Virus record (IMG/VR): IMGVR_UViG_2565956631_000001
Source of the DNA: a virus
Taxonomy: Duplodnaviria; Heunggongvirae; Uroviricota; Caudoviricetes
DNA length: 4,119 bases
Strand: one strand, 5' to 3'
A program made the translations under genes and the position numbers. Under the pieces are notes generated by a model. That model had not been told where the DNA came from. It saw only the letters and a program-made list of their open reading frames with translations, and did not search any database. Positions 230 to 4,119 of the stretch are shown here, in pieces (within the stretch, counting starts at the first letter, position 1; the number at the start of each line of letters is the position of its first letter).

Positions 230-700
230 CTAAATCTCTCTGACCGTTCCGCCCGCTTCTTTGAATTTTGCAATCAGGCTGTCAGCCTTATGCTCGAACT
301 GACCATAACCAGCGCCCGGCAGCGAAGCCCAGATATTGCTGCAACGGTCGATTGCCTGGCGGATGTCACCGCGATCAATCATCGGCAAAGCGCCACGCTC
401 TTTAATCTGTTGCAGTGCCACAGCGTCCTGGCTTTTCGGAGAGAAGTCTTTCAGGCCAAGCTGCTTGCGGTAGGCATCCCACCAACGGGAAAGAAGCTGG
501 TAGCGTCCGGCGGCTGTTGATTTGAGTTTGGGGTTTAGCGTGACAAGTTTGCGAGGGTGATCGGAGTAATCAGTGAATAGCTCTCCGCCAACAATGACGT
601 CATAACCATGATTTCTGGTTTTCTGCCGTCCGTTATCAGTTCCCTCTGACCACGCCAGCATATCGAGGAACGCCTTACGTTGATTATTGATTTCCACCAT
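230..700 (-). CDS. R: Endolysin R (lambda-type lytic transglycosylase)
   Basis: 156-aa ORF starting [39 protein letters not shown]..., essentially the lambda R protein as I recall it. A GGAG Shine-Dalgarno lies about 8 nt upstream, and the start overlaps the 3' end of S as in lambda. Confidence 0.95.
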
Positions 701-1007
701 CTTCTACTCCGGCTTTTTTAGCAGCGAAGCGTTTGATAAGCGAACCAATCGAGTCAGTACCGATGTAGCCGATGAACACGCTCGTTATATAAGCGAGATT
801 GCTACTTAGTCCGGCGAAGTCGAGAAGGTCACGAATGAACCAGGCGATAATGGCGCACATCGTTGCGTCGATTACTGTTTTTGTAAACGCACCGCCATTA
901 TATCTGCCGCGAAGGTACGCCATTGCAAACGCAAGGATTGCCCCGATGCCTTGTTCCTTTGCCGCTAGAATGGCGGCTAACAGGTCATGTTTTTCTGGCA
1001 TCTTCAT
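684..1007 (-). CDS. S: Holin S, class I, with the dual-start MKM motif for the S107 antiholin and S105 holin
   Basis: 107-aa ORF starting [39 protein letters not shown]..., with hydrophobic transmembrane segments and a charged C-terminal tail. It matches lambda S as I recall it, and the two in-frame ATGs separated by a Lys codon are present. Confidence 0.95.
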
Positions 1008-1298: not shown

Positions 1299-1334
1299 AA
1301 AACGCAAAAAGCCCCGAGCTATTAACTCAGGGCT
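1299..1334 (-). terminator. Intrinsic (Rho-independent) terminator about 65 nt downstream of the pR' start; candidate functional equivalent of lambda tR'
   Basis: Minus-strand RNA: AGCCCUGAG-UUAAUAG-CUCGGGGCU, a 9-bp stem including one G-U wobble, followed by UUUUGCGUUUU. On the plus strand the same stem has a C-A mismatch and a weaker T-tract, so it is better formed in the minus orientation. Confidence 0.55.
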
Positions 1335-1440: not shown

Positions 1441-2064
1441 CTAACGCGTGACCGCGTTCAAAATGTTGTCTGCGATTGACTCTTCCTTGTGGCATTGCAC
1501 CACCAGAGCGTCATACAGCGGCTTAACAGTGCGTGACCAGGTGGGTTGAGTAAGGTTTGGGATTAGCATCGTTACAGCGCGATATGCTGCGCTTGCTGGC
1601 ATCCTTGAATAGCCGACACCTTTGCATCTTCCGCACTCTTTCTCGACAACTCTCCCCCACAGCTCTGTTTTGGCAATATCAACGGCCCGGCCAGTACCGT
1701 GACAATCTCTGCATCTTGCGCCCGGCGTCGCGGCACTACGGCAATAATCCGCATAAGCGAATGTTGCGAGCACTTGCAGTACCTTTGCCTTAGTATTTCC
1801 TTCGAGCTTTGCCACACCGCGGTATTTCCCCGATACCTTGTGTGCAAATTGCATCAGATAGTTGATAGCCTTTTGTTTGTCGTTCTGGCTGAGTTCGTGC
1901 TTACCACAGAATGCAGCCATTCCGAATCCGGCTTGTGATTGCGCCATCCCCATAGCAGCCATCACATCAGTACCGGAAAGAGAGTCAGAAGCCGTGGCCC
2001 GTGGTGAGTCGCTCATCATCGGGCTTTTTGGCGAATGAAATTTAGCTACGCTTTCGAGTCTCAT
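1441..2064 (-). CDS. Q: Late-gene antiterminator Q (lambda type)
   Basis: 207-aa ORF starting MRLESVAKFHSPKSPMMSDSPRATASDSLSG..., containing the Cys-rich zinc-binding motif CRDCHGTGR...CGRCKGVG. It matches lambda Q as I recall it. Shine-Dalgarno GAGGGGAAG lies upstream, and the start overlaps the stop of the upstream gene (ATGA). Confidence 0.95.
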   Translation of the reverse strand: MRLESVAKFHSPKSPMMSDSPRATASDSLSGTDVMAAMGMAQSQAGFGMAAFCGKHELSQNDKQKAINYLMQFAHKVSGKYRGVAKLEGNTKAKVLQVLATFAYADYCRSAATPGARCRDCHGTGRAVDIAKTELWGRVVEKECGRCKGVGYSRMPASAAYRAVTMLIPNLTQPTWSRTVKPLYDALVVQCHKEESIADNILNAVTR

Positions 2065-2249
2065 CGTCTTCCCCTCTTGCCCTGTTTGACCATCAGGACG
2101 CCGTTGACTATTACATGACGCTCGCCTTTGCTGTCTCGGTTGTACTTGAGCACTGTTCCTCTTGCGCAGGAAAGCATCCTTGCCACTTCGGTCTGATTGC
2201 CTCGTGTCTGGATAAGAAGCTCTGGTATCGTTTGAATTGTGGCGTTCAT
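2061..2249 (-). CDS. ninH: NinH-like small DNA-binding protein
   Basis: 62-aa ORF MNATIQTIPELLIQTRGNQTEVARMLSCARGTVLKYNRDSKGERHVIVNGVLMVKQGKRGRR. The core GNQTEVAR...RGTV.KY...IVN.VLMV resembles lambda NinH as I recall it and is helix-turn-helix-like. GGAG lies upstream; ATGA overlaps with both neighbours. Confidence 0.75.
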   Translation of the reverse strand: MNATIQTIPELLIQTRGNQTEVARMLSCARGTVLKYNRDSKGERHVIVNGVLMVKQGKRGRR

Positions 2250-2608
2250 GCGTTCTCCAGTTCGGTGATTTTTATTCCAAGCCTTCCGCCTGGTACTTTC
2301 ACGCCACGAATTACGCGAATGTCATCGAATTGCTCGTCGTCTTCCGCAAATCCGGCGTGGATAAGGGAGTCGAGTAAACCTTTCAGGATGTTGTCGAGGT
2401 CGCGGCGGCGGGAGTCTGGAACGTCTGCGATGACTTTGATGCGGAGTCGTGATTTGGTGAAAATGTCTAACTTAAGTTGGCGGATGATTTGCTGAACGTC
2501 TTTTCGGTATTTCTGGCCTTTATCGCTGATGTAGTATTGGCTTCCCCGTCTTCGCCAGTAGGTGTTCAGCGACGGCGGGTATGGAAGCACAAACTGATAT
2601 TCGTTCAT
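2246..2608 (-). CDS. rusA: RusA-family Holliday-junction resolvase
   Basis: 120-aa ORF starting MNEYQFVLPYPPSLNTYWRRRG..., with the RRRDLDN acidic motif and a C-terminal GGRL.I.I.E segment characteristic of RusA, which is 120 aa in E. coli. Strong AGGAGG Shine-Dalgarno upstream. Confidence 0.85.
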   Translation of the reverse strand: MNEYQFVLPYPPSLNTYWRRRGSQYYISDKGQKYRKDVQQIIRQLKLDIFTKSRLRIKVIADVPDSRRRDLDNILKGLLDSLIHAGFAEDDEQFDDIRVIRGVKVPGGRLGIKITELENA

Positions 2609-2895
2609 GGTTTAATCTTCCCCTCCTTCAGCAGTATCGCCTGCGTCCTGATCACGCCTTCGAGGTGGTAAAGTCTGGCGTCTTTGTTGTCGAGATTATG
2701 GGTGCGTCGGTCGATTTCATCGTGACACGCGCTACAAGCCCATGCGCCGATCAGGTCGTCAGGCTTCATCCCCGTTCCGCAAATTCCAGCCATCCGGTAA
2801 TGTGCCAGAACTGTAGTTTCAGGATTGCCATTGCATACGCCGTAAATACGTACCTGGCATTCTCTGCCGCGCGCTTCTTTGCGTAGATTAGCCAT
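2605..2895 (-). CDS. ybcO: YbcO-like DUF1364 protein (putative zinc-binding nuclease)
   Basis: 96-aa ORF MANLRKEARGRECQVRIYGVCNGNPETTVLAHYRMAGICGTGMKPDDLIGAWACSACHDEIDRR..., with Cys/His residues spaced for metal binding. It has the size and position (immediately upstream of rusA) of ybcO in the E. coli DLP12 prophage; the family assignment is from recollection. GGGAGG Shine-Dalgarno upstream. Confidence 0.7.
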   Translation of the reverse strand: MANLRKEARGRECQVRIYGVCNGNPETTVLAHYRMAGICGTGMKPDDLIGAWACSACHDEIDRRTHNLDNKDARLYHLEGVIRTQAILLKEGKIKP

Positions 2896-3617
2896 TAAGC
2901 AGCCTCCCCTGTTACTTTCAGCATTCCGTTATCGAGCAGCTTTCTGGTCAGCCACTGTTGGCCACGCCCGGTGATTTTTGTGGTGAACGATATCTGTATT
3001 CCGTGATTTGTGTTGACCGCTGTTTCTTTCACTGTGAAATAGCCGCGCTCCATATATTCCTGCATTGGCACATTTCTCCGGGAACCTGAAGCAATAAGGA
3101 TTTTGTGATCGCGCATCCACGCAAACAGTTTGTTTGGACCAATTCCAACAACCTTTGCAAAGTTTCCAATCAAAATTCCGCTGGCCTCGCCAACGCGATC
3201 GGCAAACTCAACTTTAGGTGCGGCAATTGCGAGCTGGTTTTCCAGTTGCATTTTCTGCTCAGCAAGATCAGCAGCAAGGCGCAACGCTTCTGGTAGCGTT
3301 TTGGGGATATTAACCGCAGCTTCTTCAAGCTCTCGCCAGCGGTCAACAAGGCGAGCGGTGAATTCCGGCGACAGCTGGGCTACAACGACAATACTGTCTC
3401 GCTTTCCTTGTTCGCCTTCGAATACATACACACAAAAACTTTGATTTAAGCCTAACCCATTGATTCTTCCACAATCCTCAATTTGAGGAAGCCGGATAAC
3501 ACCATTTTTAGCCAGCGTTTCGATGGTACGTTTCACATTGTCATGACGCTTACCTGTAAGCTCAGCGATTTCAATGCTTGTCATTTTGATGGCATTGCCA
3601 TTTATTAACTCATTCAT
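2895..3617 (-). CDS. Phage regulatory protein with N-terminal Rha domain and C-terminal KilA-C (antirepressor-type) domain; Roi-like
   Basis: 240-aa ORF. The N-terminus MTSIEIAELTGKRHDNVKRTIETL is typical of Rha-family DNA-binding domains. The C-terminus ...GNFAKVVGIGPNKLFAWMRDHKILI... is typical of the KilA-C/antirepressor domain. Shine-Dalgarno GAGGAAGAAG upstream; the start overlaps the ninF stop (ATGAATGA). Confidence 0.8.
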   Translation of the reverse strand: MNELINGNAIKMTSIEIAELTGKRHDNVKRTIETLAKNGVIRLPQIEDCGRINGLGLNQSFCVYVFEGEQGKRDSIVVVAQLSPEFTARLVDRWRELEEAAVNIPKTLPEALRLAADLAEQKMQLENQLAIAAPKVEFADRVGEASGILIGNFAKVVGIGPNKLFAWMRDHKILIASGSRRNVPMQEYMERGYFTVKETAVNTNHGIQISFTTKITGRGQQWLTRKLLDNGMLKVTGEAA

Positions 3618-3786
3618 CGTCTTCTTCCTCGTACATTGAGCTATTCGGATCGCTCATCAGTTCTGCGCAGCAGTGCTCACACACGTGAACTTCCAGCACA
3701 TGCAGCTTCTGACCGCAGTTAGCGCACGTTAAAGCTCGCTCGACGCTTTCTTTCTGGTATTGAAGGGATTGGGATGGGCTAAGCAT
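3610..3786 (-). CDS. ninF: NinF-like small Cys-rich protein (not in the ORF track; found by manual translation)
   Basis: Manual reverse-complement translation gives the 58-aa product MLSPSQSLQYQKESVERALTCANCGQKLHVLEVHVCEHCCAELMSDPNSSMYEEEDDE, near-identical to lambda NinF as I recall it. It is probably absent from the track because it falls below the length cutoff. AGGA lies upstream; its start overlaps the stop of the upstream ORF. Confidence 0.85.
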   Translation of the reverse strand: MLSPSQSLQYQKESVERALTCANCGQKLHVLEVHVCEHCCAELMSDPNSSMYEEEDDE

Positions 3787-4119
3787 TATTGGCGTCCTGC
3801 ATCATGAGAAATACGATCATGGCGGCGCGGAGTGGGTTATTGTCTATGGTAATAAATTCACAAAATCTATCCGCCTCCCACCAATATTCATTCTTCATTC
3901 CAGGATTATTTCTTTCGTATGCACATATGCTGATCTGATGTTTTGCGATTACAGGCCATGCGTCTGCTGGGTTATTGCAGTAGTCGTACCATCGATAATT
4001 ACCATTTGCTTCATTGCCAACAGACCGTCCATCTGCGTTGTTCGGATAACCTAATGGTTTTGCCCCAACTATCACTTTAAATACTCGCTTGTTAATTTCA
4101 AAATCACTTAACTGTGAAT
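3779..4119 (-). CDS. Hypothetical protein, C-terminal 113 codons; the reading frame stays open to the right window edge, so the true start is outside the window
   Basis: The track reports a 98-aa ORF from a GTG at 4075, but the same frame has no stop codon from 4076 to 4117 (...SQLSDFEINKRVFK precedes VIVGAKPLGYPNNADGRSVGNEANGNYRWYDYCNNPADAWPVIAKHQISICAYERNNPGMKNEYWWEADRFCEFITIDNNPLRAAMIVFLMMQDANNA). Same strand as the operon, and its stop overlaps the ninF start. I do not recognise the family. Confidence 0.5.
   Translation of the reverse strand, partial: SQLSDFEINKRVFKVIVGAKPLGYPNNADGRSVGNEANGNYRWYDYCNNPADAWPVIAKHQISICAYERNNPGMKNEYWWEADRFCEFITIDNNPLRAAMIVFLMMQDANNA

Follow-up and report, generated by a model that had tools for sequence, protein, structure and literature searches.

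A probable tR' terminator of the P22/HK97/HK022 form, with a predicted short leader, behind a Q identical to that of lambda

Where would transcription from a lambdoid late promoter stop in the absence of Q, when the Q is that of lambda and the leader is not? The question is posed by a hairpin on the minus strand of a 4,119-nt stretch of Caudoviricetes DNA (the window, i.e. the whole stretch analysed), which the initial annotation had placed shortly after pR' and ahead of S, R and Rz in the late-operon direction; the gene map agrees with that placement, and the promoter is of the lambda type. We conclude that the hairpin is most probably tR', the intrinsic terminator of the Q-dependent late cassette, in the form carried by P22, HK97 and HK022, and we put the probability of this reading, which draws on homology and on folding, at about 0.9. 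The feature is already known; it is common in enterobacterial prophages, and public records already give the name tR' to its P22 homologue. We infer by homology that termination does take place, where the RNA has its 3' end, and that Q brings about read-through.

By its gene content, the window is an ordinary lambdoid late-control region, with all of its genuine genes, as judged from the list of open reading frames and from Pfam, on the minus strand (Table 1). The whole window is 95–97% identical, at about 89% coverage, to Kapi1, Gally, HK140, N7, HK620, mEpX2 and many E. coli prophages, and the spacer between Q and S is 94–98% identical to those of HK140, HK544, HK106, mEp234, Sf101, HK022, HK97, others, and Salmonella phage Emek. 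Directly upstream of the hairpin lies a Q gene of the lambda family, whose product shows 100% identity to lambda Q and 97% to P22 gp23, two proteins that can replace each other (PMC8022706).

Table 1. Features of the window and their coordinates (leader positions are counted from the late RNA start)
Feature	Position	Strand	Details
NinX-like gene	3779-4075	-	
NinF	3610-3786	-	
KilAC/Rha antirepressor-like gene	2895-3617	-	
YbcO	2605-2895	-	
RusA	2246-2608	-	
NinH	2061-2249	-	
Q antiterminator, 207 aa	1441-2064	-	Pfam Antiterm PF03589, E = 6e-58
Q-S spacer, 433 nt	between Q (1441-2064) and S (684-1007)	-	
Late promoter pR'	1398-1370	-	promoter scan; -35 TTGACT 1398-1393, 17-bp spacer, -10 TAAATT 1375-1370
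Q-binding/qut stretch TTTTGAATAAAGTTGGGTAAA	1392-1372	-	between -35 and -10 hexamers
Late RNA start, +1 = A1363	1363	-	from identity with lambda and the 5' nucleotide of the late RNA marked in the P22 record
Sigma-dependent pause element, -10-like AACGAT, +1 to +6	1363-1358	-	identical in lambda and P22
5' part of leader, +1 to +23	1363-1341	-	can form weak 5'-terminal hairpin AACGA...UCGUU
Segment differing from lambda	1340-1179	-	about 160 nt, against about 405 nt in lambda (alignment with lambda, Emek, HK140)
Predicted terminator stem-loop, +28 to +56	1336-1308	-	13-bp minimum-energy stem with 3-nt loop; alternative 9 bp with 7-nt loop
GC core of the hairpin, +31 to +53	1333-1311	-	
U tract UUUUUGCGUUUU, +54 to +65	1310-1299	-	predicted release near +60 to +62
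Second hairpin	1168-1122	-	GGCAUGAGGUU-GCGCUA-AACCUCCUGCC within a longer stem, then GUUUUGCC
Holin S	684-1007	-	Pfam Phage_holin_3_1, E = 2.4e-30
R endolysin homologue	230-700	-	without Pfam match; name from annotations of matching records
Rz, start only	downstream end of the window's gene order	-	

The elements that should precede a Q-dependent terminator are present and in the expected arrangement, namely pR', a Q-binding element between its hexamers and a -10-like pause element at the start of the transcript. The promoter is identical to the annotated P late of P22 and nearly identical to lambda pR', its qut stretch differs at two positions from the sequence that the mEp234 record gives for lambda qut, and the sequence that follows the -10 hexamer, TGACTC-AACGATGG, is the same in P22 and nearly so in lambda. 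The start site is fixed by the P22 record, in which the first A of AACGAT is marked as the 5' nucleotide of the late RNA. Yin et al. 2022 (PMC9388147) describe a nozzle formed by lambda Q and assign the pause element a part in the loading of Q; on this model RNA polymerase would initiate constitutively at pR', pause at the sigma-dependent pause element and come to a halt near +16/+17. Without Q, the GC core of the hairpin, extendable to the full stem-loop, would together with the U tract release an RNA of about 60 nt. Q, in turn, would bind between the -35 and -10 hexamers, load onto the paused complex and, with NusA, make a nozzle on the RNA-exit channel; the Q-loaded complex would be unable to form the terminator hairpin and would read on into S, R and Rz, the holin gene S being the first late gene to require read-through. 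Is the distance between pR' and the hairpin too short for this to work? The RNA 5' end threads through the Q nozzle at an RNA length of 14–16 nt (PMC9388147), which is well ahead of +28, so the short distance should be no obstacle.

Two further observations concern the leader upstream of the hairpin. At positions +9, +11, +15 and +17 (1355-1347, minus strand, spans +9 to +17), the leader departs from lambda and matches P22, and the differing stretch surrounds the +16/+17 pause site although the Q is 100% lambda Q; these differences place a mosaic joint with lambda inside the pause region, where it could alter the lifetime of the pause. Additionally, AACGA of the pause element is complementary to UCGUU at +19 to +23. 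The resulting 5'-terminal hairpin is weak (-3.5 kcal/mol, with 12 of 200 shuffles equally stable), and both of its arms co-vary elsewhere, as AAUGA/UCAUU in contig L095 and as AAGAAUG/CAUUCUU in contigs L077 and L083, changes in other leader types that look compensatory. Sigma-dependent pausing accounts for the 5' arm; its conserved complement may serve as a stabiliser of the mRNA 5' end. In L077 and L083, which are IMG/VR contigs with a Q about 99–100% identical to that of lambda, the 5'-terminal hairpin, just behind Q, spans +1 to +33 and is followed 2–4 nt later by UUUUUU; were transcription to terminate there, the RNA of this leader type would be no longer than about 40 nt. L083 also has a lambda-like tR' 3' arm further downstream of that hairpin.

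The hairpin itself was read base by base. From 1340, the minus strand runs AAAUAAAGCCCUGAGUUAAUAGCUCGGGGCUUUUUGCGUUUUAAU, in which A1334-GCCCUGAG (1333-1326) and CUCGGGGC (1318-1311) with U1310 flank the loop UUAAUAG (1325-1319). These arms give a 9-bp stem (1334-1326 with 1318-1310) that contains a U1329-G1315 wobble and closes a 7-nt loop, and the tail that follows is UUUUGCGUUUU (1309-1299), just as the initial annotation had described it: a GC-rich stem of 9 bp, a loop of 7 nt and this tail. Folded with RNAfold, 1336-1308 reaches 13 bp and -19.1 kcal/mol (z = -4.44, with none of 200 shuffles equally stable), and the 8-bp GC core by itself contributes -15.2 kcal/mol. The plus-strand version carries a C-A mismatch in place of the wobble and folds to only -13.5 kcal/mol, i.e. 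5.6 kcal/mol less, so that the strand asymmetry suspected from the letters has a counterpart in folding energy.

How good a terminator is it predicted to be? In a simple terminator scan it is the largest hit of the window (13 pairs, six of them G-C). The six hits that the scan finds in the window do not exceed the number in shuffles (4.8 ± 2.0), and because the hit total is at the chance level we ran a whole-window test, in which the most stable hairpin closing beside a T-rich 8-mer was sought on both strands and in 150 dinucleotide shuffles. The hairpin was the best site at -18.0 kcal/mol, a value that none of the 150 shuffles reached (their best sites averaged -11.4 ± 1.9). An approximate d'Aubenton-Carafa-type score is positive both for this hairpin (21.6) and for lambda tR' (15.3). 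Folding and terminator prediction on both strands, which were among the checks proposed for this hairpin, agree on a stable structure at the best site of the window. A point against the tR' reading is the break in the U tract (U5-GCG-U4). Several tR'-like terminators that stand behind other Q types share the tract TTTT(T)GCGTTT. In position, hairpin and U tract (+28 to +65) follow the pause site and precede S, the first of the late genes, whose start is 292 nt away from the end of the tract. With 3' ends placed 7–9 nt past the stem, i.e. near +60 to +62, the predicted Q-independent RNA from pR' is about 58–65 nt long.

The assignment to tR' comes most directly from relatives in which the same element has been named. 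Searched with 61 nt that span the hairpin, 93 phage records gave matches at 89–100% identity, P22 among them; mEp235 and Gally have copies 100% identical to that of the window, and those of HK544, HK140 and HK022 are 95–97% identical to it. Homologues of the hairpin are annotated in P22 (NC_002371, X78401), Emek and ES18. In the P22 RefSeq record (NC_002371.2, 37917-37945), the entry names the element "t late or tR'" and has it antiterminated by the action of the gene 23 protein, and the element lies at +31 to +59, 30 nt downstream of the marked 5' nucleotide of the late RNA. A second P22 record (X78401.1, 5588-5626) has "inverted repeat; terminator tR'; terminator tQ", Emek has "rho-independent terminator" in an annotation made by MFOLD, and ES18 has "terminator, putative". 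That the P22 records state no evidence type for tR' is a point against our reading. Short Q-independent late RNAs, regulated by antitermination, are described from the late promoters of P22, 21, 82 and phi80 (Sy et al. 2020, PMC7547250), and for that of P22 the passage concerned credits Roberts et al. 1976. This passage and the P22 annotation notes are what speaks for termination without Q and for read-through with Q plus NusA.

Annotation is also where the practical value of this analysis lies, for many records leave the hairpin unmarked or mislabel it, and several draw hypothetical ORFs across it. The HK620 record is a case in point. Positions 898-940 of L006 (HK620, NC_002730) carry this hairpin, with 100% identity as far as GGGGCTTTTT and then a tail of its own, CATTTCTGCAATCC, and the RefSeq annotation labels it 'qut' and puts 'tQ' at 1529-1555, about 650 nt downstream, which speaks against the tR' reading. 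Either the 'qut' label is wrong or the late leader of HK620 has two successive terminators.

Does the structure persist when the sequence and the Q protein change? A scan of viral contigs for the exact pattern GGGGCTTTT(N)GCGTTT returned mostly unrelated generic terminators, and only copies behind Q-like genes were used; these relatives lie directly downstream of genes for long-Q proteins of 254–276 aa and for Q proteins of 227–229 aa. The result was a set of 15 distinct variants from four or more Q types, whose hairpins were re-aligned alone with MAFFT and whose pairs were also counted from the stem base. The set had been seeded by the base of the 3' arm and the T tract and then hand-picked, so that weight attaches only to pairs of the upper stem. 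Across the 15 variants, the stem base GCCC/GGGC never varies and the fifth pair is U-G in all but one, which has C-G; pairs 7 and 8 vary on both sides (A-U, C-G, G-C). When the hairpins are aligned with MAFFT, 98.6% of the cells are paired, against 24–64% in slid registers, and two pairs show two-sided change, one of them with C-G in six variants and A-U in five. Related terminators behind other Q types, as far as this alignment goes, keep the stem via compensatory changes. The late-strand fold is better than the opposite-strand fold in all 15.

With respect to lambda, homology holds to about +23 with four substitutions, is lost from 1340 to 1179, and returns at 1178 (CTTCGTGAAAGCGGG), about 170 nt upstream of S, to continue as far as S. 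The hairpin falls inside this replaced segment, as was thought at the outset. The leader is not a copy of lambda 6S RNA, for it is predicted to be about 60 nt long and its homology to lambda stops near +23; counted from +1, it is much shorter than the 194 nt of lambda, in line with the original prediction. MAFFT did align the lambda tR' hairpin with that of the window, a homology that we find unconvincing, the likeness being the generic CGGG-U tract only. The same segment holds, on the plus strand at 1175-1198, a terminator-like hairpin, CCAGCCAUUGCGCUGG followed by UUUUCUUUUAU (-12 kcal/mol, z -2.5, two of 200 shuffles equally stable), whose significance is doubtful because no plus-strand gene is close by.

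What the initial annotation missed is how ordinary a short leader is. Among 5426 complete E. coli genomes, 333 carry the 116-nt module from pR' to the terminator, counted at a coverage of 80% or more. In a census of the best 80 IMG/VR contigs with a Q about 99–100% identical to lambda Q, 37 had a leader of the lambda 6S type, 33 the short type, four a third, also short, type with a different hairpin (GCCCCGCGG-AUAACA-CCGUGGGGC), and six had others. The lambda 194-nt leader is, by this count, one among several interchangeable cassettes, and the short one is unexceptional. A few contigs fuse a hairpin of the window's type straight to lambda sequence from beyond tR' (e.g. ...GGGGCTTTTTGCGTTTGCACAACAGGTA), which puts recombination joints within or beside the T tract. 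Since leaders of some 60 nt occur about as often as the long type behind an identical Q, the 194-nt 6S RNA of lambda should not be assumed to be typical.

Could the hairpin be something other than the Q-independent stop? It might chiefly serve, within the 5' UTR, to stabilise the late mRNA or direct its processing, with the stop further downstream, for example at the second hairpin (1166-1128 within 1168-1122), which is very stable (-25.8 kcal/mol, z -3.5) and shared with lambda; the HK620 annotation, too, has its tQ far downstream of a hairpin of the 1336-1308 type. The second hairpin is followed by only four U, however, and it failed the terminator scan, and its lambda counterpart lies well beyond the experimentally known tR' (+135 to +194) and is not the primary stop there, whereas 1336-1308 has the canonical GC stem and U tract and was picked, itself or as a homologue, by the independent annotators of P22, Emek and ES18. 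We consider a downstream stop very unlikely. About 115 nt separate the hairpin at 1168-1122 from S downstream of it. It is conserved in lambda, Emek and HK140, with a single internal position opposite C variable (U, G or A), and may have a part in the processing or stability of the late mRNA. It is overlapped by a 51-aa GTG open reading frame on the minus strand (1059-1214), between tR' and S, which HK140 annotates as a hypothetical protein; a Pfam search with this frame gave no match, and it is probably not a gene. Still less weight, indeed next to none, goes to the idea that 1336-1308 arose by chance as an inverted repeat, or that it terminates plus-strand transcription. The chance-level total of scan hits would fit the former, and the A-tract and U-tract flanks do render the hairpin partly symmetric, but an equally good site arose in no shuffle of the whole-window test, the position of the hairpin is conserved across many phages, every gene of the window is on the minus strand, and the plus-strand fold, with its C-A mismatch, is the weaker one. 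A plus-strand terminator role was rejected on that weaker fold, in the window and in all 15 relatives.

A different kind of alternative leaves the site as tR' and its terminator role intact, and adds a second role: the terminated RNA of about 60 nt would double as a functional, Hfq-binding, trans-acting sRNA, made constitutively in lysogens. Precedents speak for the idea, for StxS of Stx phages originates likewise from pR' and tR' (PMC7547250), and lambda 6S RNA was recovered with Hfq and with RNA partners in RIL-seq (bioRxiv 10.1101/2024.10.31.621285), a study that also reports, without coordinates, a lambda RNA of about 63 nt, 'LPR2', near 6S RNA. The layout of the window's leader is sRNA-like, with a 5' stem, an A/U-rich linker UUAAAUAAA, the terminator hairpin and a U tail, and the high conservation of the module in E. 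coli genomes could be taken in the same sense. Against this, the pause element, pause site and terminator use up nearly all of the 60 nt and leave little room for a seed, conservation of the module can be explained by the pausing and termination roles together with recent common descent, and no Rfam family covers the leader (searched against Rfam at E ≤ 1, the complete window gave as its sole hit a spurious snoU85, away from the hairpin). An additional sRNA function strikes us as unlikely, and the fuller proposition, that the lysogen RNA is an Hfq-associated trans-acting sRNA with effects on host or prophage physiology like those of StxS, as decidedly unlikely. If it were true, the leader cassettes found on one Q (the 6S type, the short type and at least three others) would amount to sRNA alleles that can be exchanged for one another rather than to mere spacers.

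Read as tR', the hairpin can be set beside four known systems. StxS (EcOnc15) is made in lysogens of Stx phages by constitutive transcription from pR' that ends at tR' (PMC7547250); there, a longer precursor is cleaved by RNase E at +173 and processed to 74 nt, and both Hfq binding and targets have been demonstrated. Lambda tR'/6S has the same function and cassette as the window, with an identical Q and with pR', qut and pause element near-identical through +23. The lambda terminator, in contrast, is a compound hairpin of 55 nt (+135 to +189, -26.3 kcal/mol) whose RNA ends at +194, whereas that of the window is a simple hairpin of 23–29 nt at +28 to +56, with a predicted RNA of about 60 nt; the spacer between Q and S is 676 nt in lambda against 433 nt here, and orf-64, present in the lambda leader, is absent from this one. 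Behind the ES18 gp73-type long Q, and in contigs L114, L123 and L195 with a Q of 227–229 aa, the terminators share the window's stem base GCCCYG...CGGGGC with its U-G wobble and, soon after the late promoter, the U tract UUUU(U)GCGUUU, but they differ in their upper stems, their loops (a GCGA tetraloop in ES18), their upstream leaders and their Q families. P22 tR' is 92% identical over 61 nt and agrees with the window in position, promoter, qut, pause element, stem base and U tract; the two differ in the loop, where P22 has 1 nt more and three changed positions (UUUAACCG as compared with UUAAUAG).
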